From the NCBI GenBank assembly GCA_030704615.1, contig CM060734.1, forward strand, positions 15,376,001-15,440,000: DNA of 64,000 bases, written 5' to 3'. This DNA comes from Takakia lepidozioides. Its lineage: Eukaryota; Plantae; Bryophyta. Under the pieces are notes generated by a model. The model worked only from the letters and a program-made list of their open reading frames with translations, did no database searches and was not told the DNA's origin. Below are positions 4,107-57,961 of this stretch, piece by piece. Every line of letters begins with the position of its first letter. The first letter of the stretch is position 1. The position numbers and the translations under genes were made by a program.

Positions 4107-4147
4107 GATGAGGCCAATCCCAAGGACGATCGCGTACTGAACTCTAA

Positions 4148-4159
4148 GCTCTGATACCA
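4148..4159 (-). promoter_or_regulatory. Primer-binding site (tRNA-iMet) of copy A
   Basis: Reverse complement TGGTATCAGAGC, abutting the LTR. Confidence 0.9.
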
Positions 4160-21753: not shown

Positions 21754-21795
<42 letters not shown>

Positions 21796-23110: not shown

Positions 23111-24762
23111 TGAAATGACCCGTGGGCGCCCAAGTGACCCCCGCCCAGTGACGCATCTGGAAGGCAAGCAACCAATTAAGCATGTACGTGGAGGATACTC
23201 AAAGGTGGAGGTGCATGAATACTCCAAGTATTCAGATCCTCCAGAACAATCAAACATGACATGCAGCTAGCGTATCATGGGGTGCCATGAATTTGTTATC
23301 TCCCTTAGTTAATGATTGTTCTCAGTTAAACAGTGAAGTGGGGTATCCTAGTTTCTGATTATCTATGTCATCTCTTCAAGTACAATTCATATTCTCTTCA
23401 TGCATTTCCACAGCTTCACTTGAGTATCTCTACACAATATTGGAGTTCAAGTGGGTGTTGCTTAATATCATAATGGTATACAGACAGGCCGCAGCCTCTG
23501 TTTCCTAAGTTCCTACTCCCCTCGTCTAACTCTGGAACTCCATTATCCCATGCTTATCTCCCTCTAGCCTTCTCTTTGTTTCATACTCTCTCTCTCCTCC
23601 GCTCCTGCATCAAACCATGCTCCGTATGACAAGGATCATACAGTAAATGATCACTCTGCCTTCATCGTAGCTCCGTAAGTACTGCTTCTGCCAACCGCCA
23701 TGACTCCAACCGTCCATGTTCTCTTTCTTGCAATCATCTTTTGTTCTTGGCTCATGACCTAACCACCATGATCATGGTTCATGTTTCCTTTGTGTTCCCC
23801 TTCATGGTCTGTTGTTCCTGCTCATGATCCTTCGTTCCCACTCATGGTCATGTTTCCCTGTCATGGTCCTGGTTCATGGTTCATAGTCATTCATGGTCTT
23901 GGGCCATGATATAGTCTTCATGATCGTTGCGCCATGAGGGTTTATGGTCACTGCACCATGAGAATTCATGGTCGCTCATGATTCCTATGCCATGATTAAT
24001 CATGGTGACCAAGGAAAGAAATCACAAAGAGTGAAACATATTGATCACTCACGTTTGACATTGGCCAACCGAGTGAGAGAGCGACGTGCATCATTGCCCA
24101 CACTCATGAGTTTTTCCTTGTCTCATGCTTCTCGAGACAATGGTTCAACAACCAGATTGAGTATCTAGGCCATAGATATATCTTACAAGGTCAAATCGGT
24201 GTTGCATTCAGGTGTCTTCATCTTGGAAGGTCGAGATGACATGGTGTGGAAGGATCATGTGCACAATTGCACGCCATGTCATCTTTCCCATGTGGATGGG
24301 CAAATAAATCCAAACCTTGCAGTGGTACCTGCAGGATTGCGGTGCATGTTATATATACATGCCATTAGATGGTACTTAGTGCTGCAACCATGTTAGGGTG
24401 AGACAGATGCTCAAGGGGGTGACACAGGGGGTGCTTCACACTACCACTTGAGGAGATCCTTATTGGGGAATGGTTGTGTCTACGTTGCATTTGTACATAG
24501 AGAGTGGGCTTAACAATGTAGATGCTGACACCGAACTAGTGGGAGACCAACGCCACTGACATTCAACTCAGGGTCACAAATTGCAAGTAGGTGACTAACG
24601 ATGGGACTACCTTTGCACCCGACCTCTTGATCTTCAAAGCTTCAGAACTGAAACATTGGCAATGGCAGATATAGCACATGGATCTATTGGGGATTGATAC
24701 ATGTCAGCTAAGTGGTATTAGAAAGACCTAATTATCAGCTGGGGGGGCGACTTTGGCACGAA

Positions 24763-25090
24763 TTTGTAAGATGATATGCTACACTAGTGTGGTTAGACAA
24801 CGATGTGTGTTGTAGCACCATGCTTAAGTACACGACAGCTATCAAGGTTTTGGTCATGGGGTGCTCTCATATTGACTCAATTTATGTGATAGAGTGGATT
24901 TTCACTTTAAAGGACTAGGGTTTGTTCCTAGTGTGATTACTTTTATGCTTAGAATGTTTTCATTTCTTTCTCTTCTTCAGTTTTCATCTCTTATCATTGT
25001 GACACAGATTTGTAGTATGATATGCTACACTAGTGTGATTAAACAACGATGTGTATTGTAGCACGATGTTTAGGTGCATGATATCAAGGT
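24763..25090. repeat. Imperfect ~80-bp direct duplication
   Basis: tttgta..atgatatgctacactagtgtg.tta.acaacgatgtgt.ttgtagcac.atg at ~24763 and ~25009. Confidence 0.7.
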
Positions 25091-30633: not shown

Positions 30634-30678
30634 GTCGCGCACCTTGCTTTGATAAACTCCCCTTCAAGTCATAGTTAC
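30634..30678 (-). repeat. Inverted 45-bp fragment of the chromovirus LTR U5 end
   Basis: gtcgcgcacctt..taaactccccttcaagtcatagttac is the near reverse complement of 31350-31394 and matches 57963-58007. Confidence 0.85.
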
Positions 30679-30680
30679 AT

Positions 30681-33005: not shown

Positions 33006-34589
33006 TCTATAGACAATATGAATAGGAAGTAGAATACAAGCAAACTTGTGTTTGTATGATGATAAACTGTCATATATTTGTGGGTAATGGGCATGAGCAC
33101 CGAATAAAGAAGCAGGAAAATGCACTGTTGCATTCAACATGATAATCAATAGTACCTAGTAGTTTGTATATTATAAGATGATTTGTATGATGGTAAACCA
33201 TCAAGTAACTTTGAGTAATGGGAGGTATCACGTAGAGAAAAGGCATGAGAGTGCACGTCGCCACACTCATCCGCACAAGCCAATAGTACCAAATAGTATT
33301 GAGTTGGATTACATAGGAATATGTGTTGCGATCAAAGGCAGATTGCCAATAAGCTTCATTGTTGCAAGGGAGATTGTTCTCCATTATGGAGAAGGTCTGC
33401 CAACCTACGAACACTATATGGTTAGTGTAGATGGTTGGAATGTGCAACAGTGAGTTGGCATTGCCACACTTCGTCCAGATTTCTGTATGTGTAGGTATTG
33501 TAGAAACGGAAATAGTATATGACAAGAGAGGTGTCCAAATATGCTTGTGATTATAAGAGGCAATATTGGGCAATCTTACAGCACTACTGCAAGAAATAGC
33601 GTTCTTCATCAAGTTGGGGGCCTGCAAACTAGCTATATGTAAAGTAAAGTTGGCAGTGTAAATGATGCAAGAATTCAGTATTGAATTGGTCAAGTTTAAA
33701 TCATATCATGTCCTACTGTTTGTAATCAAATTAGGTGGAGAGAGGGTGTGGCATGACCGGAGTACAAGTTGGGTTGTTGCTGTAGAGCTCGATTTTGAGC
33801 CAGGCTCTTTGGTTGTTGCAAAGGGCGTCATGCCCCTTCCTATTGAAAGTCTGCAAGCTTGCAATGAGTGTGGAATTGTGAGTGTCGTAGTGTGTGTAGA
33901 AGATGCATACAACCTGCCTAATTTCAAAATTGAGCAGTGATGAGCTGGCAATGTCAGTCTTGTTCCAATACTTAGTGTTTGTGGAGTGTGAGAAAGAGAG
34001 TGAATACATCAAAAAAGAAGTATACTTATGGCCCTATTGTTGTAATCCGTGGCGGGTGTAGTGTACACCTAGTCAAGCTTAAAGCTTGGTTAGTTTCCTA
34101 CATGCTTCCTCATTAGTCAAAATAAACAACAAAGGCCTCATGACTAAGGTAAGTAGTCCACTGAAGCATGGTTAGAGACACCCCACATGGTTAGTGCTCC
34201 CTCAAGGTTAGATCTCTTCCTCCCTCATGACAACCACAAAGGTTCAATCAAAATCCCATGGGCCTTTTGGCCGCTCTAGGGTTAGTCCCTCTCTTGCATT
34301 GCAATGAAAACTTCCTCGTAATTGATTAGTACACACTCTTCCAAGCTCTCCTCATTACTCTCTTCTGTGGTTAGTGGGGGCTTGTCAAAAGAGCAATACA
34401 ACAATAAAACAAGAAAGCAAGAGCAAAGTAAGCTTCTCTCCTTTCTTGAGGTGCGCCCAACTTGCTCAATGGATGCTACCAAAACCTAGTGAATGGGGTT
34501 AGTAGCTCACATTTCTTTGGGGTTTGTTGCTTACTACCTCCATTCTCTCCTAGGGGCTCACCTCACTCCGAGTTTGCAAGGTACACTAT

Positions 34590-37073: not shown

Positions 37074-38120
37074 TCATGATAATTCCAAAAGTGAAGACAG
37101 ACTATCCATCCTCATAGAGCCTTGCCATGGAGAAGCAGTAATCTGCTGAACTACAATAATCCGAGCTTTATTGAGGGTCTCACAAGAAAACTTGATGTGC
37201 CCTCGAAACTCTTGCAACTGCGACCGGAAACTTCCTTGATGTTTTCTGAGCTGGTCTGCTACCACTCTCACTGCACGATAGTCTTCCCTTCTCTTTTCAC
37301 AAAAACAAATCCGACTCTTCGTGCTCTCCACGTCGTTTCGCAAGCGCGTTACCAAACAGTTGACGGTTTTCAACACCTGGAAAATAGAGTAGGTTCCTTT
37401 GCTAGCTTCCTCTAACTGGGCGTACTGAACTTCCAGCTCAACATTGTCGTATCGATGCTTAATAGCCCTCAACCTTGACCTCCAAGAATCCAGTGAAATC
37501 TTAGCTGCACCAGGCTCTGAGATTCCAATACACTTCATTGCAGCGGGCACTGCAGCACAAACTAACAGCGGTCCACCATTAGCGACTAGAAGAAATGGCA
37601 CAAATTTCTTCCGCCTCTCATTTCTTCGGAGCTTTGTGGATAAAATCGTCTTCATATGCTCCAGCTGTATGCCCATCTGATCATAGTCATCATGAACAGT
37701 CTGAAATTGGTCAAAGTCTTCCCTGGAAAATGGATTATCAGTGGCTGCAAATTTACCGAGCTCCTTCAACACCTTTCCGTGTATCCTTTTGCTAGGGTTG
37801 TCCCCGCCCTCAGACACAAGTTTGAGGGCCTCATCAATGCTCTTCTGGTTTTGTTTGGCTCGAATGATGCTTCCAAGCAATGCTCTATACATATCCGACG
37901 CCCTCTCTGTCCGATCAAAGTACAATTTCAATAGGTCGCGAACCTCTGCACTTGGCCATGTGCTTTCCCCCTCAGAAAACATCCTTTCGACCTCTTTACT
38001 GTCAGGCTTCAAGAGAGATAAAGAATCAAGCTTAAAGGATAGGTCGTCGCCAATCTCAATGCACGAGTTGCTAAGGATGGTCTCGTTATCGACACCGTCG
38101 CTGCTCCCGTTCGATGTCAT
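37074..38120 (-). CDS. UPF0496 / DUF677 (At14a-like) family protein, intronless, 348 aa
   Basis: LLKLYFDRTERASD..LLGSIIRAK..VLKELGKFAATDNPFS..FQTVHD, a hydrophobic segment and KGTYSIFQVLKTVNCLVTRL. Clearly similar to the neighbouring paralogue. Confidence 0.85.
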   Translation of the reverse strand: MTSNGSSDGVDNETILSNSCIEIGDDLSFKLDSLSLLKPDSKEVERMFSEGESTWPSAEVRDLLKLYFDRTERASDMYRALLGSIIRAKQNQKSIDEALKLVSEGGDNPSKRIHGKVLKELGKFAATDNPFSREDFDQFQTVHDDYDQMGIQLEHMKTILSTKLRRNERRKKFVPFLLVANGGPLLVCAAVPAAMKCIGISEPGAAKISLDSWRSRLRAIKHRYDNVELEVQYAQLEEASKGTYSIFQVLKTVNCLVTRLRNDVESTKSRICFCEKRREDYRAVRVVADQLRKHQGSFRSQLQEFRGHIKFSCETLNKARIIVVQQITASPWQGSMRMDSLSSLLELS

Positions 38121-38822
38121 TTCGCGCCCTCGGTGGCCGCCTCATACTCGCAGCCTCAGCTACAATCATTGCAGCATGCGCTTAACCACATGCCAATCCC
38201 AAGGCACAAGAAGAAGAAAAATGCAAGCAACTTACAGCTCTGTAAACTTCTCGACCATAGACGCATCCGACACCATCGCAGAAAGAGAATTAAGACTACC
38301 TGTTTCCCGGAGCTGAGATCAATCTTCTAGTTCTCTACAAATTTCGAATGGATGTCTGTTTCCGAGATATGCGATCAGTACTAACATCTCACCAGTCACT
38401 GAATGCCAAAGACTTGAATCCGAAGCCATGACTCTCACAGAAACCCTAAATCGCAAGACAAGAAACGCGGTGCCAAACAGGATAGACGAAGATCGACATA
38501 CTAACTAGCTTTAACTATTTAATTTCATTTCATTTCCTGTCAATTAGCTTACAGTATTATTACGTACTGGCCTCCCCAAAATTTCAGTCCGGGCAGCGAA
38601 AGGGGCAGAATGGCCCGGCCCTGACCGTTCCATCGCGTTATGGTCAGCTACAGAAACTGCCCGAAACAGCCAACTTACTCGGCATTCTGCGACCTGCTGG
38701 GGCATTCTGCGACCTACTCGGGCATTCTGCTACCCCACTCGACTCGAATATTCTGCCATTTAACGGAGGGGCAAAAATGGCAGAAAAACCACCTCCTGAC
38801 CATAACAGTACTACCGTACTTA

Positions 38823-39140: not shown

Positions 39141-40802
39141 TAATCCCTCTAGAGTGAAAGGGAATGGTACTACGTGACCCCATTTGTCGCTGGCAACTGT
39201 CATTGGGTTCCGATGGTTGAAATGCGCCACGTGGTACCAACTACAATTGTCGCATATCGGTTGGAGCGCTGCGGCGTAGCCGCGACGTTATAAAAGCGCC
39301 TTTCTGTACGTGAGCTACAACACACTTTCCATCTCCATCTGCGGATGAACGTGCAACAGAACTACTCGTCCAGTTCCTTGGAGCGGATGAATGTCTCTCC
39401 ATCCGCTCAGTTGGCGTGATGTTCCTGGCTGTATGAGTAACCAGCTGTGGATGCTGACTCATAACGGATGTCATCTTGTCGATATGGATGAATGTCGTGG
39501 AGTCTGACGCGCCATAACCATATGGTGGACCCGTTGTCAGAGGCCGCTTGCAATTTTCCTGTCCGAGTCTGACACACATTCATTCTCTTTAATAGGTCTG
39601 AAGCTTTGGATTACGGGCAATCGACAAAGTATATATCGGAACGCGTGCTCAATGGGTTTTTTGCGAAGTTGGTCACACGCCACCACCCGAGGGATGGTTG
39701 CAACAATGCAATCCGGTCTCACACAAGGGCCTTGACGCCCACGCCCTTACCCCACAATTTCTGGAGCATAAACCGAGATTCGCAGAGAATGGCTTTTAAC
39801 TTAGTATAGACAGAACATTTTTGCGTGCAGAAAAAAAAGAAAAAACAGAAAAGAGTGCAAGGTACCTTCGACGAGGAGTGAGGGAGACGAGAGAGAGAGG
39901 GCGGGCAGTGGGCTGCAGTAGCATGCAAGCCTTGCCCAACGCAGTGTGCGATGGAGGGCAGCCTTTTGCTTTCATCCTGAGTGATCGGTGCCTGGGTGTC
40001 CACTCTAGTGCACACTCTGTCGTCATTGCTTCATTTCAACGCCGTCTCAGCTCCGAAAGGATCCAGCTGTTGTGCTGCCCCTGCTGAGGGAGAGTTTGGG
40101 TGGCTCACGAGTCCGTCTCTTGTGGGCTTCAGGTCCCGCTTGAGGTCCACAGTTCGACGGGAGGCGAAGTGAAGTCTGGAGCTGCACTATCAGTTTCCCA
40201 TGGGGACTAGTTTTGCATGCAGTTGTCTGGATGTGCCTTCTTGCGCCTGAAGTAACCTTTGCCAGCGACGAGCCTGCATTACGAGGGGGATTGGGTACTC
40301 TTTGTTACATGCTGGGGACACTCTGGAGTTTGAATGCATAGCTGGAAATCAGCATGATCCAGCATACTCCTTCGACGCTATTAGAGCGCCGCACACGTAT
40401 CATGTAGAACTTGGGTCATCGGTATTGAGGAAGGACGTACAAGTAAGAGGCTTTTCACTTCTGTGCGCGAATTTATCTTCTGGGGTTCAAGCTTCCATTC
40501 GAAGAGATGTGACTGAAGAACTATTTTAAGATGCCTACGATGTTTTCGGACAGATTATATGAGCCGGGTCTTTGAAGCATGGGGGAGACCGCCATTTAAT
40601 TCTTCCTGCGAGCGATCTATCCTCCAAGTGCAACTTTCGAAGGGAGCGCTTTGACGCCGTAGCTCGTTTTCCAAAATATACTAGCTTCTTGTTGTGCAGA
40701 CGAGCTTCATTTCAGGTCTATCCCACATTCTAAGCGCTCTTGCTTGTCCCCAGGAGGTAAAAACAACTCCTAAGCAGAAGCATTAGCCGGTGTGGCTTTA
40801 AT

Positions 40803-43800
40803 ATGGGTAACAATCACAGTACTCGCAGCCAGTCGGTCAAGCCTCTGCCACAGGTCAATCTGGCAGATTACGAGTCTGCTTGCAAAAGCGATCCTGCTGT
40901 GAGAAAATTTGATGAGAGTCTTCATACTCGCACAACGGAAGCACTTTCCAGCTTGGCGGACGGGGTGGATAAGGATGGTGGGCTGTCGTTCGAATCCCTC
41001 AAGGTGGTAACCACAAGTTTGTTCAAGGTAGATCAGGAGGTGGTAGACATAATATTAAGTTCTAAGGAAGATGTGTGGGCCAATGAGGAGTTGAAGCATC
41101 TCGTGGATGAGTATTTCGAATGCACTTTAGAGGCCTTGGGTTTCTGCACAGTGCTTGACAATGATGTGAAGCGCTCCGAAGAAAAATTGGACATCCTTCA
41201 GGTGGGTTTCAATCTCCATTTCAATGAAAATCCTAATTCAAAAGCTGGTTAACACATGCCAGCCAATTTTTGTTGGCCAATCAGCACCCTTGGGCCTTCA
41301 TTCTGAGAGTTTATAATCTTGGAGTCTAGATAAGGGCAGGGGGTGTGGTCCCGAGACCAGACAAAAGAGGAGATCTTTTAGATGTTCTAGTCTAACTCTA
41401 TAGTGAGGTCAGCTGCAAAACTGGTGTTGTGTCTCAGCTCTCTTCGAAGAAGCAATCTTCCAAAGCCAAATCGACCCCCTTTAAGTTTGATGTGCTGCCA
41501 ATCTAATGTAATCCCAACAACGCAGTTTGACCTTAGAACACCTCCACATAAGGTCAGCATGGATCCCACTGATGAGGTTCTGCCAAACTTGAAGGTGTTA
41601 GAGATAAAAAGCTAGACTCATTTCCTGCCATCCACGGGAGGCCATTCTGAATGATGGTAACACCTTGAGGACTGGAGGAGGAAAGGTTTATTCAAATCAG
41701 TGTATTAGTTTTCCATCTCTATAATTGCTTTTTGTGTTTGTCTTCACTGGTCTAGATCCAGACAAGTTGTGGTTGCTCTGTCCTACTACATCCACCAGGT
41801 TGACCATGAACATCATCATTATTGACAATTCTTAAGGTTTTACGCTGTGCAGGTATGGTAGCAATCAGACAATGCAATCCAATTTTAGCCTTGGCTGCCT
41901 CCCTCCTCTGTCCATATCTAGCATGTGCTCAACAGCATTTAGATTTATGCAAGCATGAATGGCGCATTTCTCCCTCTTCCTTGCTACCCCAATTCAAACC
42001 AGTGTCTCCTTCCCTGTCTCCTGGGGGGGGAGCAAATGTGTGACCGTCTGAAGCAATTATCGCCTCAACTTCTACAGACGTGATATTACCTTTTGTAGCT
42101 TGTGCTCACAACAGATGCACTGCAGGTGGCTTTCAACCTGATGCCCCCTCATGGAAAGCCCTCCAAGGAGGAATGCGACAAGGTCCTGAAAGAGCTCCGT
42201 GACTTCGTTCAAGCTGCAAACCCGTTCTCTGAGGACTTCAACAACCAATTCAAAAAGGTATACGATCGACATCTTGCGATGCAGCTGAATCTGCAAGCAA
42301 GGAAGAAGAAGCTCGACAGCAGGCTCCGTACTGTAAAGGGATGGACTAAGGTGTCAAATGTCATTCTAGCAGCCTCTTATGCGGCTCTTTTCATCTGTTC
42401 TGTTGTTGCTGCTGCTGTTTGTGCCCCATTTGTCGCTTTAGGCATTGCTGAAGAGTCAAGAAAACCTTCTGGGTCCATGGGGAGCTGGTTCAAGCCTCTG
42501 TGTACTCGATATGAGGAGCAGATCAAAGCCCAACAGGCGATTCAGGATGCATTTAGCTCCGGAACGTATGTGACCATTCAAGATCTGAACACCATAAAAG
42601 CTCAAGTACACAGTTTAGAGGTATGTTCCAGTCTTCTGAATCTCACTGTTGTTGAGGAGCAAGGCCCTACAAAATATGATGTAGCTCTCTGTGCTTTCTT
42701 TCCTCCTTTTGACCATGTTCGTACTGCAATTAACAGGCCACTTATTATTGTCCTGCTCGTTACTTTCCTTTTCCCTGCATCCCTCTTGCGTGGTTCCATG
42801 TGCATACTTTGCCCCTTCATCTCTGTGATGTCAGAAAACCATTGGCGTGTGGTCGGGCTCAGGATTGAGCCTAGGATCTCCCCCATTACGGTGGGGTGCT
42901 CTAGCACTGAGTTATCAGTCCCGTTCTGTTCTCAGAGTGCCGTGCAAGGGCTATAGCCTTGACACCTCCAACACTCCCCCTCAAGGCATAGTCCTTATTG
43001 CTAATGCCCACCCGTTTCTGACCACTGCCACAACCTTGGCTCTGATACCGCGTCAGAAACCATTGGCGTGTGGTCAGGCTAGGGATTGAACCTAGGACCT
43101 CCCCCATTCCGGTGGGGTGCTCTACCACTGGCTACCCATCCAGTTCTGTTCTCAGTGTCATGCAAGGGCTATAGCCTTGACACCTCCAACATGTGAGGCC
43201 TGTCAGCTTGGAAGTTTCACGGCCGTGCTCTATGCGTGGGGGCCCAATGTAGGAGTTTCAGGAACTCAGTACCTAGAACGTTCCATTTACTAAGGCCATG
43301 TTTGGTGATGTTGTGTCAAGTTGGCAAATTGGACTTCAATTGTTTGTTGGTTTCTATCAAACCAGAATGTGAGTCTGACACTCATCTCTTAAAGCAGTTG
43401 AATATATTCGGTTACAGTGCAGGGGAAAACTTTCAAGTTGGTGCAAAATTACTCTGCATTTTGGGTTCTTATTTCAGATCTGAAATTGAATCTCAAGTCT
43501 GTTGGAGTGAGATAAGTTGAATTGGGGATTTCGAAGGATGTGACTCATAGTCACTGCTTCACGTTGTCTGCATGGCAGATTAAACTCACAGCAATCAAAG
43601 AGAATGTCGGCTTTGCTGGGGGACGACCGGAGGACCCCAGTTCCTTGCAATTTGTTGTGGAGGCAATTAGGAAGAAACAGGCAATGTTTATCGAGCAATT
43701 GGGAGATCTAAAGAAGTCTGTGGAAACTTCTCGTCAACATATAAGTGTGGCTAGGACGACAGTTGTGCGAAGGATTCTGGAGCCTGGTCTGGTTGAGAGA

Positions 43801-43845
43801 AGAGGAATGAAGGATAAAGTATGTTGCTGTTGTGGAGGTGGATGA
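40803..43845 (+). CDS. UPF0496 / DUF677 family protein, 3 exons (40803-41201, 42126-42620, 43579-43845), ~386 aa
   Basis: MGNNHS myristoylation-type start; YESACKSDPAVRKFD; LSFESLKVVT; LVDEYFE; LKELRDFVQAANPFS; GTYVTIQDLNTI; ARTTVVRRI. All junctions are GT..AG, phase 0 and keep frame. Confidence 0.92.
42829..43191 (-). mobile_element. TRIM (miniature LTR retrotransposon) with tRNA-derived LTRs, Helenus-like, in intron 2 of the DUF677 gene
   Basis: LTRs 42829-42973 and 43051-43191 (TGTTGG...CTGACA on minus). PBS cGGTATCAGAGCC (43038-43050); PPT TGAGGGGGAG (42974-42983); 5-bp TSD TGTGA. Each LTR holds A-box and B-box-like motifs. Confidence 0.9.
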
Positions 43846-44514
43846 ACTCTGTACTCCCAGTTCTCTTCCTGGGGAGTGCCTTATTGCTAAAAGGCTACAT
43901 CAAAGTCATTTGATGAAGATCTTCATCAGAGTCATTGGGACCTGTTGGAAGGCAGCTATGATGATAACCGTGTGGAATTGTACATGTGAGCGAATACCTG
44001 ATTGCTTTCCTGGTTGATGAGTGCAACCATCAATTAGGGTGGAGGGAGAGTCCCAGTTTTTGGCCGGTAGTTCTGCCTTCCTAGTCTTTTGGGTCGAGGT
44101 TGTTTCTTTAATCTCTTTATGCTGCGGTCACAACCTCTAGAACCAGTTTTGAAACTAGGGATATTCATGAGCTTGGTTGCTTGTACTGTTCTCCCTATGT
44201 GCTCTGTGATGAGGAGGGATTGGACAAATGGAATATGAAACCAAGTCCAGATGGTCTCGGGGGATTGAGTCTTTAGACAATTTGAACCCTTCCTCGGAGC
44301 TGCTTTATTATTGACTTGCTATTTGTTGTGGATGATTTGGGAACTGCCAACCCAAGCAAGTCACATTCACCCGTCGTCAATTGCCAGACCATGATTCAGC
44401 ATTCTACTATTTTTTCAAGGTATCAGTGATCCCATCATCATCTCGATTCTAACTCGTGGTCTATATCTCGGTATTTGGCCACACATATAACATTGAATCA
44501 CTATTCACCAGCTA

Positions 44515-44940
44515 TTACGCAATACTCGCAACATATCCCAAAACAGATGCGATCGTGCATCATGCAAACCATTACCATGACCTGCGGGAGAATGTCCTTG
44601 GCAAGGCCACCCTTCTATCACCAAGTCAATGGGACCATGCCGGTCCAAATCGCAAGGCCACCCTTCTATCACCAAGTCAATGGGACCATGCCGGTCCAAA
44701 TCCTCCGCCCCCAGCATGGTAATGTCTGCTGGCAAGGCCTTTTGGTACCCTTGAATGGCTGAGAGAGGCAACAACTCAGGATACTGGTGTGTGAGCAAGG
44801 CAATGTGGCGCATGAAAATACGCCAAGCAATCTCATCCTTTTCCCCATACAAGTACTTGCGTACTTTGATTCCTGCTTACAACACTCCTGCAAGCCCAGT
44901 GCTCATGCCTCCAAACAGGTCTAGCAAACAAATGCCTAAG
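44515..44940 (-). pseudogene. C5-cytosine DNA methyltransferase domain (DNMT3/DRM-like motifs I-V), truncated before motif VI
   Basis: Motif I LLDLFGGMSTG; II YLYGEKDEIA; III ADIT; IV GPIDLVIEGWPCQGHS (catalytic PC); V GLHDARSHLFWDMLRVL. Confidence 0.9.
44601..44702. repeat. Perfect 51-bp tandem duplication covering DNMT motif IV
   Basis: 44601-44651 is identical to 44652-44702, giving DLDRHGPIDLVIEGWPC twice. Confidence 0.95.
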
Positions 44941-47143
44941 TCAGGTGGTTGCCAGATAATAGACACCGCGTCCAATGGAGCTAACTGAGGAGGTCCAGGT
45001 GATGTCACTGAACTCCCCTCATCCACCGATGGAAAGACCTCCTGCCATGCCTGCTGAACACATTGACCTCCCATCCAATGCAGATCCCCAACTGTATCCC
45101 ACAGTGGGCTATGAACATACGCATGAGGAAGCAACTCAGCCGTGTACGCCAATTGCCTCTCTTCATCAGGTGGTGGGCTATCCTTTGCATGGCTGTTGCC
45201 CTCCAAGAGCTCACCACCCCAAGCCACCACACCTGAGAATGCAGCCAATGTGGGTCTCATGTTCCTATGATCCACGGCTACATTCCCAGTAAACCGCACC
45301 GGAAGCAGTGCACGCCGGCCATCCCCTGACTGCCATCCTGGGCTATAGGACGTTGTCTCCTCCCAGAAATCCAACATGAATCCCATAGAGTACAACACAG
45401 CCCCACCAACAAGCACATCATAGGACATCGCGTCCGTAACAATGGCTTTTGCTCTCATGACTGAGCCTTGTGTGGGATGATCTGGCTGCAGTCAAATGAA
45501 AAACTCATGGCGTGTGATCCCCCTCGGCTTCTCTGAACCACCCAAAGATGTTTGAATTTGGAAAGGGCAAGGCTCCAAATCTACCTCTGTAAGGCCCAAG
45601 CCTGCAACTGCTGCTCTCCCCAACATCAATGGTTGTGCTCCCGAATCCAACAAGACTCGCAATGGCCTATATCTCCTCCCGACTGGGCCACTCAACTGAA
45701 ACACTCCATCTTGATTGTCCACCAGGACTACTCCAGGAGTCACCATGCTGCGCTCAATGGCTGGCCTAGCTGACAACTTTTGCAACCTTACAGCTGCCGC
45801 TTGCCATGGCGCAGCTGTGGTTGACTTCACCCTCAAATCCAAGGCATCCATAGACTGCACCTTATCTGCTATCCCCGCAAATAGTACCGATGCATCACCA
45901 CTCTCACAGAGTCTAGCTGCTAGTCTGAACACAACAGCTAGCCGAATCCCCGACATTGCAATGGTCATTGCAGAAGACAAAGGAGCTTGGCAAACCACTG
46001 TAGCCGCCCCCAACAATGTACTGGCTGCACCTTGCTTTGTAGCACCACCCACTGGCATTTCCCGAGCCACACCAACTCTCCCCAATGACACTCGTGGCTC
46101 TACCTCTGACACACTTGGGCGAGCGAGTGCCATTGATGGTGTAGGTGGCACTGTAAAGGACTGTGGAAGCCTTGTCTGACGACTTGCTTCCCCCCTTTGT
46201 GGATCAAAATCCACATCCGCTCCTCTTGGCTCAAGAGCACGCGTTGCTGCTCAAGTGACAGCAGCAGCAGAGTCCAGTACATGCAATGGCCCTGCAAATG
46301 CGGCTGCACACATGAAGCCCATACCAATCTGGTCTTCCCTAGGCATAGGAGGTTGTGCAGGTGGAGCTTGAACCTCAGGCCTTGGAGCTGGCGCAACATG
46401 AGTAGTGGCCATGGCAGCAAGACGTTGCTCTAGCTGGGCAAGTCTATCCACCATGCCTTGGTCATGACCTTGATCCTGACCCTGTGCTCCTTGGTTTTGG
46501 TTACGACCTCCACCACGATGTCAGCCTCCTCTACCTCTCTAGACTACATTGCCTTGTCCTCGACCACCATTGTTCCCTTGGAACTGGCCTGGTCGTAGCT
46601 CATGATGCAAGTCATAACAATAGGCCTCCTCATGCCCATACTTGCCACAATGCCCACACTGTAATTGTGTAGGCTGTGCCTATGTCGGCCCTTTGCCTCT
46701 CTCCTGGCAATCCTTCTTGACATGGGGTCCTCCACAATCCCAACATGACACACTCGTCTGTTGCTGGCCTGAGAATGAAGGAAGAGACCTTTGCATCGAC
46801 TGAGATCCTCTCTGACCTTCCCTGGGCTTTGTCTGAGCCCCCTTGTTGCCTTGAGCACGTTGGGGGGTTGGTTGTTGTTGACTAGGAGCCCCACTTTGTT
46901 GTGTCTCCTTGCCAAACCCCACCATAACCACCCGCTCCTCCACCATGTTGAGCTCTATCCACTCTGCTAGCAAGAACACATTTGCTAGGGTGGGTTGGCC
47001 CACTTGTAGGAGAGTTGCATCCCGCACCCTTCTCCTCAGCTCCGTGTCCATGTCGAGCGGCTTTTACTCACCCATCCCTTCGCTATCCCAGACAGCCCTC
47101 TAACATTACCCCTCCCCCTCTCAAAAAGCCGTGTCCTCACAGT

Positions 47144-50100
47144 TTACTGTTTAGGATCAGCAAACCTTTGTGAATGAGCACCTTTCTGTCGGTGAGAGTC
47201 CCTTGGAGGGCTCTGTGTGCAAGCCTGAGCCCTGTCACTAGCTGATGGAGGCAATTGAGCACCAAATGGAAATGTCTGACCCTCCTGTGGTTGATAACGA
47301 GGTAACCTCTCAGGCATAGGAGATCCCCGTCGTTTCTTCTCTGCCATCTGTAGTGCATAGTCCTCCGCCAGGTCAAAAGGTTCCTCCGTAGAACCAGTAA
47401 TATTAGAATCATCTTCCCCCCTGAGGTGTTTCGGTGGCCGAACCTTAAGTGGCTTCTCCGAAATTCTGCGTGGCATACAGTGTCGGCCCACTATGTTGGG
47501 AAGCTTAAACTGTACTACTTGCATTAGTCGCTTGCAAGCAAAATGAGTGTACTCCCTGAATTCCTTGTCCGTATAGGTGAGAGGTGTGCCAATGACTTTG
47601 GAACGGTGTAAGTATTTCTAGGCCTCATGTCCCTTATAAAAAATATCGTCAGGGCCCAATTTTTCCTTGGTCAAGTTGGTCCAAGCCAAATTAAACCATG
47701 AACGAAGTTGAGAATCCTTCTGCAACATGACTTTCGCATCATACAGATACATATGGGGTGGAACTGAAGGTAAGACCCAATGATCCCCAGTGGAATAGCT
47801 CAGAAATCTTGACTGCATCTTCTGCTACTCAATGTGATAACGTGCAATGAAACAAGCAGCATAGTATAATCCACAACCCATGACCAAACTAGATACCTCC
47901 TTGGTCTTGGTGTAGATGTACCCATGAACAACTTGGAAGGCAATTAATTCCTTCAACATGGTGCCTGGCTCAGACCAGTACCTTGCAAAATGATGATCCT
48001 CAATGGGTCGATTGTTCGGAAAAACCTTAGTCCAAGTTGCCACTGGCAACCAAATGCGCATGATCTGGTAATAATGTGTCAAAGACTGTGGAGGACTGAA
48101 TTCCTTCCAAGCCAAATCCATCACAATGGGAATTTGGTTGAAGGGCATAATCATAGCCCGATTGTACTCAAGTGCAACAGGAGTCCTAGGTGGGTTAAAA
48201 GCAGCATCCCCCCAAACCTCAGACTGTGGCATTGCCATGGTATCAACAGTGTCAGCCACTTGCACAGCCACCTGCTGTGGGGGCTGTGATATTGCCGCCA
48301 CTGTCCCGCCTATTGTTGGCAACTCCTACTCCTCCTGTGATGAAGACTGAAAAATCAGAGTCCTGGCATGCAAATAAGTAGCCATCAGCTGCTCCTCAGG
48401 AACAAAAACTCTTTTGTCAATGTTGGAACTCAAGTCATCCACTTGAGTCTGCAACCCTTCCACATCATCCTATAACTCCACTATCCTACTATAGACATTG
48501 TCTATAGTAGTTGTGGCAATGTTCTGCACCTGCAACCTGAGATCATTCATCTCCCCCTGGGTGAGCTTTCTTGGTGCCTTTCCTTCCACCGGCCCTTGTG
48601 TTAACCATACTTGCATAAGATGATTATCCACCAAGTCCTACGTAGCACCCCTGAGAGCCTGCTCCTCCTTGAGTTTGTACATATCTAATTGCTACTGTAA
48701 AGCCTCCATGCACTTTGTATGAGGTTCAACCAGGGCGGCATAGGCAGCAGTCAGATTATTGGCTTCCTTCCAAGCCTTGTTAGCCACAGAGAGTTCATTC
48801 TTTTGGCCCGTGAGTGTTTGCTGCAACTTCAGGATGTACCTTTCCTTCTCAGCCTCAACCTGACTGTACTGTTGGAAAGTATCCTCATTGCGACGGATAG
48901 TAGCCTTCAAATCAGCAATGAGTTTCCTTTGCTCTACTATCTTAGCCTCCGCCATCATACACCTCTTTGCTTGTCTGTTAACTTCTAATGCAATTTGCTC
49001 CAGAGCAGTTGTTAGTGTGGCACATTGGATGGTCATTTTCTGATGAACTGCCTCCAACTCTATATGGAGCACCTTCACTTCCTGCAATTTGCCCTCATGC
49101 TTCACCTGCAACTGGTATAGCTGTTGCTTATGTGCTTCATGCAACTTCTCCCGCTCCAGACCCGCTTCAATCAGATTCCCCTTTGCTAGCTGCAAGACAG
49201 CCTTCGTGTCCTCCAACTCTTTCTGCAACTTGAGGTTGGCCTCCACATCCACCTTGTTTGCACACTCAGTGGCAATTATAGCCTCAAACTCCTACTTGAG
49301 TTCCTCCCACAAAGCTGCCAATTGTGTGGATGGAACATGGGATTTCACATAAGTGCCCAACAAATTGAGTGTCTTACTTATGGAACTCATAAGCATGGCC
49401 TGTTGTGGGTCTTCATGGGAAACTTGTTGATGGTCCCCCTGATTCTCCACAGTGTGATGTTTCACCAACCATTCAGGCCAAGTTCCCACAAGATCTTCTT
49501 CCTGAACGACCTCATTCTCCACAGGTGCTGTAGTGCCCTTACCTTCTACCCCTGGAACCTCCTCCACAGGTTCGGGCATCACATGCACTGCAGGGATTTC
49601 CTTGGTCAAACTCTGCATCTTTGGTACTACTGGTTCTCCAACCATGCCAGGGTTCTCATAGAGAAGGTCACCCTTCTCAATGTCTACCACTACCTGCTCT
49701 ATAGTGGGAATGTCCAACCCTTCTCCTTCCACAACATTAGGCTCTGGTGTGACAGCATGCACAATATGAGTTACTCCTGGGGCAACCAAGTCAATTGGTT
49801 GTGGTGGCCGTGGCACTGAAGTGACTTCTTCCTCCCTCTCCAAGGGTCGTGCTTCCAATAGTAACAGCCCTTTGTGCTGCTGTTCCCCATCTTGCACAAG
49901 AGCTATGGAAACATCATCTTGCGGTTTCCTTGAAGCTAGTGGATTTGCCACTATAGTCGTATCCCGCTTCTGCCTCTTGGACTGGTGCTGCCCCTCCAAT
50001 CCTCCTTCACCGTGTGAAGAGCCCTGGTCCTCAATTGCAGTGGTTGTTGTCTCAAACACTCCCATCTCCTTGCGTTCACGCGCATCAAGCAAACAAGAGT

Positions 50101-50710
50101 CAAGAATAATTTGAGCAATTATTGGGCCAGACACAATAATCGAAGACTTAGCAGCAGTGTAACCGCTTCATCTCTTCCACCAGACCATTGTACATCAACT
50201 CCGCCCAAGCCACATCTTCTCCCCTCAAGGCTTTCAGTATCTCCTCGGTGAATGATGTGCTAAGGTACTGTTGGTTCTGCTTCATGGCAAACAGAACATT
50301 CAGTATTTGGCCAACTTCCCTTAACCCTGGGTACTCGGCCTTGGTGCAAGTGTATCCTTGAGTCTTAAAGAAACTCGCTTCTTGGAACAAATTCCCTATT
50401 TGCAATCTTGCCCTGTATTCATCCACATTCACATGTCCATATGGCAATTCAAACAGTTGCTGCAAGTACTGGGGAGTAATCTCTATATCTACTCCCCTCA
50501 CCTATGTAACTCCTGTCCGGGGCTCAAAGTTCTGAATGAATTGGATCATGTACTTTCGATGATGCAAGGACCATTCCGTGCGTAGCAGCCCTTCCAATCG
50601 CAACTCCTTCAGCAGCTGCACTGCCTGTGGTGTAGCAATTGTTTGCTTTTGCAGAATCGTGGTGCTCTTCACCCTAATATCCTCCATTTTCCTAATTCTC
50701 TTCATCCCAG
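47144..50710 (-). pseudogene. Extra ORF downstream of integrase (~1,200 codons; plant-transposon-protein-like N-terminus, central coiled coil)
   Basis: ORF pieces from 50134 to 47144 share one frame, split by point stops. The N-terminal part (50710-50148; VRGVDIEITPQYLQQLFELP, DVAWAELMYNGLVEEM) joins through one frameshift. Confidence 0.7.
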
Positions 50711-51225
50711 ACAAACAAGAAGGCCTTGTTTGGAATAGCTGTAGGAAAGCTTGCAGGGCGTAGAGCATAAAGGTATGGTTGGCACAAAAAGGAATGGGTA
50801 AGTGCGTGTAAGCCTATGGGGCTTGCAGATAGTGGTGAGAGAGAATGTTCTTTCAACCCGTCCGTCCTTGCGCCACTGCGTGAGAAGTAGAGCTAGCGTA
50901 TAGTCTGTAATATCCGCCATAGCTACAAAGCTATCAATGGGCCCACTATTAATTTTGGCTGCTGTACCGGGTAGGTACTTCGACGGCCCAGTTTTTCTTT
51001 TTGCATGATAACACCCGCTTTTGCAGTACAGGCAAAGCGGAGTGCTTTGCCCCTTAGGCCACGTGTTCGAATTCAAACACTCTTCCGTTGCCCTCTGTCC
51101 GCGTGGCTTTTTCTCCGAGTTTGACTCCCAAGCTAACCTTACACTTACTGGCCACTTTTTTGACGTTAACCCGCGTCCACCTGTCACTGATCCTATGGAC
51201 TGTGCAACCCGCGTGGGCTGTGTTG

Positions 51226-51330
51226 GGCTGTGACAGGCTGTATCAAACTGTGACGAGCTGTGATAGGCTGTGTGATGCTGTGATGGGCTGTGATAAGCTG
51301 TGTCATACTGTGGTGGCCTGTGATGACTGT
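51226..51330. repeat. 30-bp minisatellite (3-4 copies) between pol and the extra ORF
   Basis: gggctgtgaYaggctgt.tc..actgtga. repeated. Confidence 0.75.
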
Positions 51331-51399
51331 GTGAACACCCATGTTCTACGCTCAGGCCATACACATTCGGCTTTACGACAAGTGCCTCGTGCTCCGTTG

Positions 51400-54300
51400 G
51401 TATTACCGGTGTAGTCCGCGACTGCTTCTGTGTTTCAATATGCAAATCATGCTGCAATGGTTTATCATGGATACCACTGTATCCCTTCAACTTATTGGCA
51501 TTAACTCTTCCAAGCATCTCTTTGTTAATGGTTTGTAACATGGCTATGTTGTTATCATACGTCTTCTGTATGACATAAGGTTCTTTCCATGGTGACTTAA
51601 GCTTAGAAGCTTTAATCTTTCCCTTCTTCTGCAACCACAGAACCAAATCGTCCGTCTTAAAAGTTTTCAATTTACCTTCATCAAATTGATCCTTCCTCTT
51701 CATCTGAATTCTGGTCATGTTATCTACTGCATCAACACGTACTTCTTCCACATGATATAATTCATGTTTCCTGACTTTAATTGAATCCTTCAATTCCATT
51801 CTCCTTCCCCATTCAGTTCTCATGGTAGGTAACAAGAATTCCACTGGAAGTAAAGCTTCCATATCATAAACTAATTGGAATGGTATATACTTAGTGGTGA
51901 CTTTATATGAAGTCCTATATGACCACAAAGTTGTCAGCAGCTTTGTATCCCAATCCGTTCTGTTTGCATTGACTATCTTAGCCAAAATAGTGCATAGTAT
52001 TTTGTTGGTGGCCTATGCCTGCCCATTACCCTGTGGGTAATAGGTTGTACTTTTCTTGTGCACAATCATGAACTCTTTAGTCAATAATTCTATGGTCTCA
52101 TTAATGAAGTGACTTCCCTAGTCACTGATAAATTCCAAGGGACAGCCAAATCTTGTAAGTATGTTCTCATACAGGAACCTTGCTGTAGACTTAGCTGTGT
52201 TGTCCCTCAGAGCCTTAGCTTCCACCCACTTTGTAGTATAATCAGTGGCTGTGATTATATACTTGTTCTGTGTATTTCTGGCTGGTGGGTTTATTGGTCC
52301 AACAAAGTCTAGTCCCCATTTCTGAAATGGTTCAGTAGGCATCGTCGGATGCAAAGCCATCTTTCCAGATCTTTGCAAAGGTCCTAGCCTCTGACACTCA
52401 TCACAACTTTTGCAGTACTTGTGCACATCTTTGAACAGAGTAGGCCACTAGTAACCAGCAAGTAGTATTTTTCTGCTGGTCGTCTCCTCTCCAAAATGAC
52501 CTCCAGCCACTCCTTTATGAACTTTCTTCCAAGACTTTATTTATTTCATGGTGGTACAAGCATCGTTTAAGAACTCCATCAGGTCCTAGCTTATACAATC
52601 TGCCACCTATCATAGTGTAAGGTAAAAGCCTTGATAGCTATTCTCTTTCTCTGTTCCTTCCCATAACTGGGTGGGCACTGACCATGAGTAAGGTAGTATC
52701 TAATTGGCCACTGCCAATCTAACCAATCATCTGCACTTCCCTGCACCTCCACTGCAAATAGACTCGCATCAGGTAATTGGTCGTCTACTCCCGTGGCGGG
52801 CTCTCCTGTTGATAGGCGTGACAAGTGATCTGCCACAAGATGCAAACGGCCAGACTTGTAAACAACTTTGAATTCAAACTCGCGCAAGATTATCAACCAT
52901 CTTGCTATCCTGCCACTTATCAAAGGCTTGTTCACCAGATAAATCAAAGCCTGATGATCCACATAAAACATAAACTTCCTTCCCAATAGGTAATGCCTGA
53001 ATTTCTTGACTGCATAAATCATTGTCAATGCTTCTCTTTCAGTGGTGCTATAGTTCCTTTCAGCACTGTTCAACAACCTGCTAGCATAGTACATAGGTGA
53101 ATCTATGTTTTCTGTGATAGTTTGAGCTAACACAGCTCCCAATGCTTCCCCTGAGGCATCACAGTGTACTTGAAATACTACATGCCAGTGAGGGTTAATC
53201 AGCACAGGTGTAGTTGTTACTGACAATGTAAGTTCCTCAAAAGCCTGCTGACATTCAGCTGTCCATGTAAACACTGCATCCTTCTTCAAAAGCTTACTCA
53301 AAGGTGCTGCCATCTATGCATACCGTCTGACAAACCTTCTGTAGTAACTGGTTTGTCCAAGAAATCTCCTTAGACTTTTAACATTTCCTGGTGGTGGAGA
53401 TGCTTTAATGGCCTCTGTCTTTCTGGGATCCACAAGCAGTCCTCCCTTACACACAATGTGTCCCAGAAGTACCCCTGAATTCACACAGAAAGTACACTTT
53501 TCTGGATTCAACCCAAGACCTCTCATCCTGCATCTGGCCAAACATAATTCCAACTTCTGCAAGTGCTCATTCTTAGAGCTGTACACAGTGAAGTCATCTA
53601 AGAACACTTGCATGAAATCATCCAGATACTCGTGAAAGATTCACTTATCACCCTCTGGAAAGTTGTTGGTGCATTACAAAGTCCAAAAGGCATGACTTTG
53701 TATGCATAAGCACCCCAGTCCGTGATGAAAGCTGTCTTTTCCTAGTCTTCTTCTGCCACTTGCACTTGGTTATACCCACTAAAGCTATCCATGAATGAGT
53801 ACATCTCATGGCTTGTCACAGTGTCCAGTACAGCTTCTGTGAATGGTAAAGGAAATGGATCTTTCTTTGTACAGGCATTCAACTTCTTATAGTTCACACA
53901 AACTCTCAGTTTGCCATTCTTCTTGGGAACTATCACAATGGATGACAACCAAGTTGTATACTCTATCGGGTATATGAACTTAGCCTCAGCCAGCTTCTTG
54001 ATCTAATCCCCAACCTTCTGTGTATAGTTCTGTACCTAGCCTATTTGATTGGTACCGACCCTGGTTCCAGTTCAATCCTGGCAAATCTCAGGTGGTATCC
54101 CTTTTAGATCCTCATAACTCCAAGCAAATACATCTTTGTATTTGATAAACAGGCTCTTAGCTTCCTCAAGGAATTTTGGCTCCAAGTCAGCCCATACTTT
54201 CACCATTCTTGGTTCCTCCTTAGTTCCTACATTCACGTCTCTCACCTGCTCTTCAGCTGTGATTGTCCATCCAGCCACTACTTCATCCTGTAAACTCACA

Positions 54301-56760
54301 GTGGCTGGTTCTTCTAGGATTTCCATTTCTCCCTCTCTTTCCTCATAAAAATGTGGTGGGTAACTACTTGTTTCCCCCTCAATTGGTGTTGTTGTTACTG
54401 CACCACAGCAGATACCTTTAAAACAACTCAGGCCTCCCAGTTGCATTTCTGCAACCTGCTCCCACTCTGGGTGTGCAACAAACAGGGTAGCCTCCTAAGT
54501 CCTCCCCTCCAGTCATACTCTCTGACTCCACGAGGTCTTCTGGTAGCAGGTAGCCTACTAGATTTCTTAGTGGTGACCTGTATCTTGTGCTTCCCATCAT
54601 CAGTCAGTAACTGGGAATTCCAGTCATGGAATATCCTGGCCTGTTTCAGCCATGGTTGACCCAGAAATAAGGAGTAAGCTTCCATAACATTATCCATTTT
54701 CAACACAGTCGTTGTGATCTTAAAGATCATTTTTTGAATCTGTATCTTAACTCCTCTTATCAAGCCTAAAGGTTGTACACTCCTTTGATCTGCCATTGTT
54801 ACTATAAATGGGGCTGGTTTCATGTTACTCAGACCAAGCTTCTGCCTTAATTGGTCTATCATAATATTCACTCCTGAGCCTCCATCTATCAGTACATCAG
54901 TCAAGTCTGTGCTTCCAATTCTCAATTGGATTATTGGCATAGAATCATCAAAGTCCATGACTGTTTCTTGCCCCTCAGGCTTCACATTATAACTTGCCAC
55001 CTTGCTGCTCAGGTCTCTGTTCTCTGTCACATGAGCAATCTGATTAATTGCTTGATACAGCCTGTGCCTACAATGAGATGCTACAGCCAATAGCTGTCCA
55101 ATGGTAATCTCAGCTTTGGTTTGGCATATTACTTCAGCCAAAGTCCCTTCATTACTCTGCACTTGTGCAGCTTCTTTCTTCACTTCATCTTCACCCTCTC
55201 CATCTTCTCTATCAGAGTCATGAGAATCTGCCATAGGAATATCAGTATTCTTCTGCATTTCCCTTATGGTGTCAGCCACTTCCCTGTGTAGTTCCTTCTC
55301 ATCTCTCCAAGCCTCATCATTTTCAGGCACATCATTGCCATCCTCATTATCATCTTCTTCCTCATCCACTGGAGGTATTAGTTTAGCTTTGCTTCTGGTC
55401 ACTATCATTGTACTCACTTCTGGTACAAAACATGGCCTAACCATGTGAGCTGCCACAACTGGGCCCTCATTCACAGGAGCTCTCATCTCATTCTGGTGTC
55501 TGATCCAGAATGGAGAGGCTGCCTTGCGATGTCCTGCCTGGTTACAATAGTAACACAGTTCTTCCCCATTAGGTCCTCTCCCTTGGTCTGCTCTGGGATT
55601 ATTTCTATAATCATGATTCCCTGGCTGGTAATTCCCTCTTGGATTACCTCTCCCTGCCATACCATTGTTATAACCACCAGGCCTTCCATAGTGGTCCTGA
55701 TCATTGTTTCTTCTTGGCTGGGGCTGCACTTGATGCACCTTTACTTGCCTAGGTTCTCTTGCAGCTGTCCTTCTGTTGTAATAACAATTCTCAGTAGAAT
55801 GGTTATCCATTTTACAGATAGTACAGTGTTTCTCCTTCATGTGGCATTCAGCTGTGGTAGGGCCTTCATTCTGACATTTTGCACACCAAACACCCTTCCT
55901 CCAATGTGTTGCAGCCTCTGTGGCATACTTCTTCAAAATCTCCTCCAGTCTTTTCTCATAGTTTTCCCTCTTCAACTTTTCCTTCTTCTTACTCTTCCTC
56001 TTGAGCTCTTGCTCTTCTTCCTCATCTGACTCATCTTCAGAGTCCTCATCATCCCTTTTCTCTCTCCTGAGCATTCCCAATTGCTCAATTTTGTTGGCTG
56101 TTTCAAATGCCTCTTCCACTGTATTATGGGGTAGCATATCCACTTTCTTTTGTAATTCAGGTCTTAATCCACTCACAAACCAGGTCTTCTGTAACCCTGG
56201 TGCTGGCACAGCAGCCAACTTTTTCATCATCAACTCCATCTTTTCCATGTACTCTTCAACAGTTTCATGCTTCTTTTGCTTTAACTGTTGTAAACTCCCA
56301 TACACTTCAACCTCAGTTTTGCTTGTCCTGAACCTATTTCGGAATGCTGTACTAAGGCCATTTCAGGTTAGGAAATGATTACCAGGGAATCTTGCATACC
56401 ATTCACTTGCTTTCTTGATAAGTGAACAAGGAAAGAGTCTCATCTTGGCATCATCGCCATTCTCATTGTTCACAATACACATGTGCTCAAATTGGCTAAT
56501 GTGTACATCAGGATCCCCTTTTCCTGCATATATTGGAAAAGGTGGTTTTGCCCGTGTTGGAGGTACCGCCATCTGTGGCCCTACACCCTGCCCTCTGACA
56601 GGTGTTGGTCCTCCTGTTGGTGTTGGTCCTTGAGGACCTGTTGTTGTAGTGGTGGAACTCCCACCAAGTATTGGCCCTTGAGCACTCCCTGCTACTGGCC
56701 CCTTTGTACTTACAGTATTCCCAGCTCCAGTTGCACTACTTCCTACATTCCCTGTCCCCC
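51400..56760 (-). pseudogene. Gypsy gag-pol (gag with three knuckle-like motifs, protease, RT, RNase H, integrase; no chromodomain)
   Basis: VLIDGGSGVNI; LRVCVNYKKLN..DPFPLP; VFLDDF; HCDASGEALGAVL; WGLDFVGP..ATDYTTKWVEA. Several in-frame stops and frameshifts. Confidence 0.92.
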
Positions 56761-56979
56761 CAGAGCTAGATCCAAGCTTCCGCCTGATCCCCCTGAGCCG
56801 ACACCTTCGTTGGCCTGTGATTCAAGTGGAGGTTAGCTATTTCATAAGCATGAGCGGCATGAATGGAGTAGTAAGACAATCGGTTTTCATGAGCAGAAGT
56901 ACAAATTAGGGAAATAAAAAACATTAAAAACATTATTTTAATGGAATGTGTCAGAGAAAAAATAATAATAATATTCATT

Positions 56980-57960: not shown

Positions 57961-57961
57961 G

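Follow-up and report, generated by a model that had tools for sequence, protein, structure and literature searches.

A dead Ty3/gypsy copy in Takakia lepidozioides and its bryophyte family, which encodes a predicted DNMT3-like methyltransferase

The locus and its reading frame

The window analysed here is a stretch of 64,000 nucleotides from the bryophyte Takakia lepidozioides (contig CM060734.1, positions 15,376,001 to 15,440,000), in which the minus-strand frame 47051-44514 encodes the remains of a retrotransposon with its own C5-cytosine DNA methyltransferase (DNMT). This single frame of 846 codons contains six stops, translated as X (46682, 46541, 46523, 46253, 45494 and 44879), and reads, in order, the tail of Gag, two zinc knuckles, an aspartic protease and what we take to be methyltransferase motifs I-V, the motif numbers being our own assignment throughout (table 1). 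As a whole, it is 44% identical to an unbroken relative (E 0). Translation does not begin at the ATG at 47051, which is the final base of another element's long terminal repeat (LTR) fused to mid-gag sequence. The frame is almost certainly a dead copy of a real multi-copy retrotransposon family.

The original prediction described one minus-strand frame broken only by point stops. The frame and its stops were recovered; the damage nevertheless goes beyond point stops, since a 51-bp in-frame duplication doubles motif IV. That the copy is dead was correctly anticipated: besides the six stops, gag is interrupted by a gypsy element and the 3' half is gone. Residues 1-200 of Gag from the Marchantia relative P0004 have no match anywhere within the window, the remainder of gag having been displaced by the inserted gypsy element.

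Domain assignments are of unequal firmness. Two CCHC knuckles had been proposed, and both are present (46745-46707 and 46658-46617); the second reads Cx2Cx4Hx4C, whereas the first has its His one place earlier, and the Pfam zf-CCHC profile has no match to the window frame. The proposed aspartic protease, with LLDSG at 45653 (DSG 45653-45639) and YDVLVG at 45422, is upheld by its similarity to P0004, although its Pfam matches fall under the cut-off (E 0.005-0.18; Asp_protease_2 E 0.005). The methyltransferase motifs, catalytic PC included, are borne out: the suggested profile search with PF00145 gave a match over the Pfam cut-off (E 9e-8), the top solved-structure matches are DNMT3A/B/C, and the domain is 61% identical to P0004. 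Motif I lies at 44924, GWPCQ at 44612 and the final matching codon at 44514, ahead of motif VI, in agreement with the break foreseen near 44515.

Table 1. Positions of the element, its second remnant and adjoining features in the window.
Feature	Position	Strand	Basis or remark
Gag C-terminal remnant	46905..47050	-	63% identity to residues 201-249 of Marchantia P0004; alignment
Two zinc knuckles (nucleocapsid)	46617..46745	-	sequence; align with knuckles of 10 full-length relatives
Retroviral-type aspartic protease, stop at 45494	45345..45758	-	56% to Marchantia P0004
N-terminal half of predicted DNMT3-like C5-cytosine methyltransferase, motifs I-V, stop at 44879	44514..44936	-	PF00145 E 2e-8; DNMT3A top in PDB; 61% to P0004
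Exact in-frame tandem duplication, 51 bp, doubling motif IV	44601..44702		sequence; not in relatives
Second, heavily deleted remnant of the DNMT family	24007..25083	+	tblastn E 6e-8 and 9e-24; blastn 65% over 300 bp to L027
Short LTR remnant, TG...CA, 55 bp, polypurine tract just before; other Ty3/gypsy element inserted in gag	47051..47105	-	sequence
Body of inserted gypsy element, without DNMT	47140..56800	-	gag-pol 56800-51400; long extra open reading frame 50200-47144
Spliced host DUF677 gene, final exon abutting the methyltransferase break, tail to tail	40000..44512	+	Pfam DUF677; spliced contigs in X5, X6

Reads of the host bear on both breaks. A contig from run X2 covers 43164-44565 without one difference, bridging the host gene and the DNMT; thus, the break at 44514 is in the DNA. 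At the other side, contigs from runs X1 and X6 part from the window sequence at 47050-47051 and 47086-47088. In run X1, another letter makes up 98-99% of the depth at stops 46682 and 44879, which are therefore private to the window copy. The summed depth in this run is about 60,000 over the DNMT versus 55-61 on the adjacent host gene, an approximately 1000-fold excess that is not a copy number. That other host copies continue past 44514 and 47050 is shown indirectly, by this depth and by the second remnant. We claim no expression, because runs X5 and X6 are only presumed to be RNA and their approximately 85% contigs of other family copies may be DNA.

Relatives and hosts

The protease-DNMT part of the window copy has 19 protein matches among 7,994 candidates, of which 15 are Marchantia polymorpha gene models, most spanning protease and DNMT end to end at 42-50%. 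PF00145 is passed by 14 of the 19, and two of these also carry reverse transcriptase (RT) and RNase H. A Marchantia DNMT used as query retrieved 62 long proteins and 612 short ones (120 of the latter listed). The hosts named among the matches listed are Calypogeia fissa, Sphagnum fallax, S. troendelagicum, S. tenellum, Marchantia paleacea and Riccia sorocarpa, with no vascular plant or Klebsormidium name among them; Mesostigma viride also has a member of the protease-DNMT family. Clustered at 50%, the proteins matching at E < 1e-30 number 281. Some full-length M. polymorpha Gag-protease-DNMT gene models sit on the V chromosome.

Metagenomes added further copies: 218 loci were confirmed and 80 of these kept, of which 74 form a single family in which the same insertion occurs more than once. 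The integrase of one (L031) is identical to a S. fallax protein over 131 residues. Among bacterial genomes, one of 131 candidate stretches was a relative, L105, which is most likely plant DNA inside a cyanobacterial metagenome bin; P0311 and P0066 appear to be mis-filed in the same way. L105 (1-9285) is an unbroken element assembled as a 9,158-bp circle with a 127-nt end overlap, a form that fits repeat collapse and real circular DNA alike. The 30 loci found in IMG/VR are all weak phage-type methyltransferases (28-48% over part of the domain), and accordingly point to no viral donor.

The window DNMT joins the Marchantia, Calypogeia and Sphagnum rows with a support of 99 in both trees (quick and FastTree), its row filling 37-38% of the columns in trees that hold only element and phage enzymes. 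The window element is thus a member of a widespread bryophyte family, and the proposal of a multi-copy land-plant family with the DNMT behind the protease stands on collinear bryophyte relatives and on the 74 loci. Contamination by algal DNA, faulty assembly or a one-off fusion between a gypsy fragment and a host DNMT pseudogene might have been suspected, as the window has just this truncated copy and one small remnant. These explanations, of which the prediction had named fusion and contamination as grounds for its refutation, are refuted by collinear and intronless relatives in seven named bryophyte species, by the placement among bryophyte sequences in the trees, by the X2 contig and by the flanking DUF677 protein, which matches Streptophyta clusters at 0.97.

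Class of the methyltransferase

The window copy lacks motifs VI-X, which relatives supply. Their complete domains hold PC, ENV, AHR-x-R-x-x-WTN and the C-terminal motifs in the alignment; the motif order is unpermuted and PF00145 is matched, as expected of C5-methyltransferases, with motifs I-V in the window and the full set in relatives. Relative P0285 scores E 6e-12 with DNMT3A, 1e-8 to 2e-4 with DRM-type enzymes and 4e-3 with HhaI. The predicted fold of P0022, with a predicted local distance difference test score (pLDDT) of approximately 90 over the methyltransferase domain, matches DNMT3A best (Foldseek E 1e-16; template-modelling score (TM) 0.78-0.84 by target), all top ranks being DNMT3. 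Judged by sequence and by this predicted fold, the family's methyltransferase is DNMT3-like.

Layout of full elements

Among the 74 loci, the order Gag, knuckles, protease (PR), DNMT, RT, RNase H (RH), integrase (IN) and PHD finger is kept wherever a locus is long enough. Relatives have the PR-RT-RH-IN order with a DDE integrase, of which the window copy lacks RT, RH and most of IN. The uninterrupted PR-DNMT-RT-RH-IN between LTRs that had been expected was not what we found: a conserved stop splits Gag-PR-DNMT from RT-RH-IN-PHD, and the ends are split repeats. Both the DNMT end and the RT start are present in 43 loci, 30 of which retain an in-frame spacer of 573 nt, while 13 have indels; all 30 intact spacers bear the same stop codon. 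The site between DNMT and RT reads TAG or TAA in 49 of 54 cases, with CAACCC next in 49 of 54. In the unbroken L105, from a distant subfamily, the first open reading frame (ORF1) ends with TAG CAA TCA, followed in frame by 1,047 codons of RT-RH-IN-PHD.

Readthrough stops of the motif UAG-CAR-YYA are known from tobacco mosaic virus and SIRE-1. The context after the DNMT (TAG CAA TCA in L105, TAG CAA CCC in the other family) appears from its letters to fit this type, with the difference that the stop of these elements separates protease-DNMT from RT. Because the DNMT closes ORF1 before the conserved stop, it would be made as often as Gag; we consider it quite likely that most translation would yield the ORF1 product, with leaky readthrough as the only route to the RT-IN frame. 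Splicing, or reinitiation at an ATG located two codons downstream, would be the alternative. Stored proteins show the same division, with PR and DNMT without RT in 78 and continuation into RT in nine. Of these nine, three come from one single-ORF cluster, and another five, gene models from Marchantia or Sphagnum, probably splice across the stop.

A second and very diverse layout, RT-RH-DNMT-IN-PHD, is also common (55 stored proteins with RT-MT-IN and nine with RT-MT, MT being the methyltransferase; P0036-P0064 and many of P0146-P0283). Its DNMTs form a group with a support of 99 in one tree and no group in the other, and its hosts are suspected to be algae. The references of the RT tree are the RTs of two chromoviruses in the window, too few to tell whether both layouts share one DNMT capture.

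Ends, target duplications and integration

The ends depart from those of a standard Ty3/gypsy element. Instead of two identical flanking LTRs, all eight loci with both ends begin with a repeat A and finish with a repeat B, running either A-coding-B or A-coding-B-A-B. The standard traits of the class are present as well: TG...CA termini, a TG left end in seven of the eight loci, and an exact 4-bp target duplication in seven of eight (chance approx. 1 in 256 each). In relatives, B follows the polypurine tract. The longer arrangement is complete in L027, and its right end was found in L045, L048, L031 (where the contig ends) and at 24741-25083 in the window. There, the second remnant comprises a piece of the C-terminal half of the methyltransferase, an integrase tail, a PHD finger, a polypurine tract (24741) and a B-GC-A-B end.

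The joint between B and A is the palindrome GACA-GC-TGTC in L027, L031, L048 and L105; L045 shows it with a single change, and window 24831-24844 has a decayed version. Within the A|B joint lie the one or two bases that separate the polypurine tract from B, which is what the joint of a two-LTR circle would carry. Moreover, 18 of 24 left ends allow pairing between the first 11 nt downstream of A and a site within A itself; in L027, the pairing of primer site and LTR forms in the fold (z -3.2). Gypsy elements of the Tf1 type are self-priming, and the pairing of 11-15 nt between primer site and LTR resembles theirs.

Such ends are consistent with joined circles being opened at an internal palindrome for integration. 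With a slight leaning in its favour, we propose that the true LTR would be B+A, that reverse transcription would be self-primed, that the ends of the complementary DNA (cDNA) would join to a circle, and that integrase would cut the palindrome inside the LTR. Such a cut would yield CA-3' ends and permuted termini; staggered and placed after CA on both strands, it would give the usual processed ends.

PAT/Ngaro retrotransposons with split direct repeats have the same order A-coding-B-A-B and a probable circular intermediate. Copying of this kind without integrase-cut circles, or recombination between B repeats after insertion for the A-coding-B form, is a possible but less probable origin of the split repeats. 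The repeat order is also that of DIRS-type elements (de Mendoza et al. 2018, PMC5890265, cited here and below from the accessible part of the source), no left end is preceded by B (0/26), and recombination between B repeats would reduce A-B-A-B to A-B while retaining the target duplication. Members of the DIRS/PAT/Ngaro class, however, carry a tyrosine recombinase. None was detected in L105 in the seven of 16 frames scanned, both long ORFs included, whereas its rve integrase of DDE type is unbroken. The 4-bp duplications and the primer-side bases in the A|B joint likewise speak for integrase-cut circles. TG...CA ends and a polypurine tract are further differences from the PAT/Ngaro type.

Relation to described elements

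Klebsormidium nitens provides a known precedent for this kind of element: its KnitGypsy-Dnmt3 is a gypsy with an intronless DNMT3-related domain and DIRS-like repeats (PMC5890265). Both have this domain inside a gypsy coding region, both have repeats in the order A-coding-B-A-B, and both live in streptophytes. The two differ in the land-plant hosts seen here and in the position of the DNMT: in KnitGypsy-Dnmt3 it lies in the Pol ORF, whereas here it closes ORF1 before a stop and shares the RT frame only in cluster P0146. The PHD finger, target duplication, palindromic joint and self-priming pair seen here are not mentioned in the accessible text of PMC5890265, nor is Marchantia in that text and its readable supplements. 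Compared by description only, the window family is probably a land-plant kin of KnitGypsy-Dnmt3.

Other retrotransposons encoding a C5-methyltransferase are more distant. SymbioDIRS-Dnmt3 and SymbioLINE-Dnmt of Symbiodinium belong to tyrosine recombinase or long interspersed nuclear element (LINE) classes (PMC5890265). In the EpiLTRs of Cymbomonas and Euglena, pol ends in a DNMT4-related enzyme and a chromodomain is present (bioRxiv 10.64898/2026.05.21.726589, accessible part). PMC12344493 and the EpiLTR preprint mention streptophytes, citing PMC5890265, in their accessible parts, and their trees may hold land-plant copies. Such elements are not mentioned in the accessible parts of PMC11982613, PMC10714607, 10.1101/363937 and 10.1101/2021.02.12.428880, and the RT-RH-DNMT-IN-PHD layout is not mentioned in the accessible literature on DNMT-bearing retrotransposons. 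In the open literature, to which subscription papers, Repbase and REXdb do not belong, we found no report of land-plant DNMT retrotransposons or of a split-repeat gypsy mechanism.

A possible role for the methyltransferase

Taken together, these observations suggest, with fair though limited confidence, that the window copy is a doubly truncated and dead bryophyte-type Ty3/gypsy element whose family carries a predicted DNMT3-like enzyme at the end of ORF1, at Gag level, and would use it on the family's own cDNA, methylating this before or while it integrates. The enzyme would probably be packaged with Gag and perhaps freed by the protease; on a balance tipped only a little towards it, it would deposit 5-methylcytosine (5mC) in the cDNA, giving new copies a mark like that of host DNA on arrival. 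The full combination, an old streptophyte gypsy lineage with a DNMT3 at Gag level via a leaky stop, cDNA methylated in the particle, and circle integration through a palindrome cut by a DDE integrase, is a tentative and rather doubtful proposal.

Alternatively, an active DNMT could act on nuclear chromatin, silencing integrated copies or marking the target site of the PHD-integrase and thereby limiting copy number. This idea is among those discussed in PMC5890265 (accessible part); the integrase does bear a PHD finger, and an enzyme made in bulk with Gag could act in trans. We regard it as unlikely, as fusion to Gag locates the DNMT in the particle beside the cDNA, and the second layout places it between RNase H and integrase, again amid the cDNA machinery.

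Still less probable is that the domain was retained for binding (to cDNA ends, the circle joint or RNA) and not for catalysis. The replacement of PC by EC in motif IV (GWECQ-type) in 75 of 234 stored relatives, P0146 included, would agree with such a role, as would a CpG loss that is nothing special and the Klebsormidium enzyme, for which no methylation was seen in yeast, although the authors deem this outcome inconclusive (PMC5890265, accessible part). However, the catalytic Cys, ENV and the motif VIII Arg are invariant in a 26-row alignment, and the related SymbioDIRS-Dnmt3 methylates CG in yeast (same source).

Selection was compared among dead copies. The median ratio of non-synonymous to synonymous substitutions (dN/dS) is 0.58 for DNMT (65 loci), 0.62 for PR (56), 0.40 for RT (40) and 0.41 for RH (33); pairs with dS < 0.02 were dropped, and the figures come without a significance test. 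The DNMT of KnitGypsy-Dnmt3, by comparison, is described as under purifying selection (Ka/Ks < 0.2; PMC5890265, accessible part). Between the window and 64 loci, 124 DNMT codons give proportions of non-synonymous (pN) and synonymous (pS) differences of 0.23 and 0.74, the latter saturated; as far as sequences tell, the domain has been retained across families. Neither CpG nor CHG ratios set the DNMT element apart from its window neighbours.

Several of these results weigh against cDNA methylation and circle integration as proposed here, beginning with the EC replacement and the yeast result for the Klebsormidium enzyme. The dN/dS of the DNMT resembles that of the protease and exceeds that of RT, a within-family figure that is weak, and the locus counts are not independent, given a single family and repeated insertions. 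The ratio of observed to expected (o/e) CpG is 0.36 in the DNMT element versus 0.15 in the neighbouring gypsy without DNMT; CpG loss being the weaker of the two, composition gives no sign of self-methylation. The layout downstream of the DNMT is taken from relatives and not from the host's own copies, and in cluster P0146 the DNMT runs on into RT uninterrupted by a stop. As to the ends, a plain two-LTR circle leaves unexplained the asymmetry of left ends that B never precedes, A-coding-B can also arise by later recombination, and the self-priming pair of L105, though present, is not in its lowest-energy fold, where a local hairpin wins.

A retrotransposon carrying its own silencing enzyme has been a puzzle since 2018, its known hosts being awkward to study. 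The question becomes testable in M. polymorpha, for which many full-length Gag-protease-DNMT models, methylomes and methyltransferase mutants exist. Element DNMTs annotated as hypothetical host genes may also confound counts of host DNMTs and the residual methylation in mutants. Finally, split ends with target duplications suggest that a retroviral-type integrase inserts circles, a route generally regarded as a dead end. If true, a self-methylating and circle-integrating retrotransposon would exist in a genetically tractable land plant, overlooked by search tools that rely on paired LTRs.

Neighbouring genes and elements

Two divergently oriented DUF677 genes lie beside the element, one with a single exon (37074-38141, minus strand) and one with introns (40761-43800, plus strand). 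The last exon of the latter, as assembled in X6 (43577-44512, plus strand), stops two bases short of the methyltransferase break, and any readthrough from it would be antisense to the DNMT element. One of its introns houses a small repeat (42836-43130) containing a pair of 74-bp direct repeats; a tRNA call at 43070 was set aside, as it falls inside a repeat.

The gypsy element inserted in gag occupies approximately 47051-57960 and is in turn interrupted by a chromovirus. Its extra ORF (47144-50200, minus strand), located between integrase and right LTR, has about 1,000 codons with a coiled-coil middle and several stops; Pfam gave nothing for it under E 0.03, and it is multi-copy in runs X1 and X2. 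Three gypsy copies bear a chromodomain (125-4870, 30634-33008 and 57961-64000). The first and the last are 92-98% alike, with a CpG o/e of 0.85, and are considered young, being so similar and hardly CpG-depleted. The window further contains a GC-rich array of approximately 280-bp repeats (9200-10750), a copia remnant (21279-23100, plus strand), a piece of a PAH-domain (SIN3-like) gene (26723-27358, minus strand) and an intronless eIF1A gene or retrocopy (7786-8223, plus strand).

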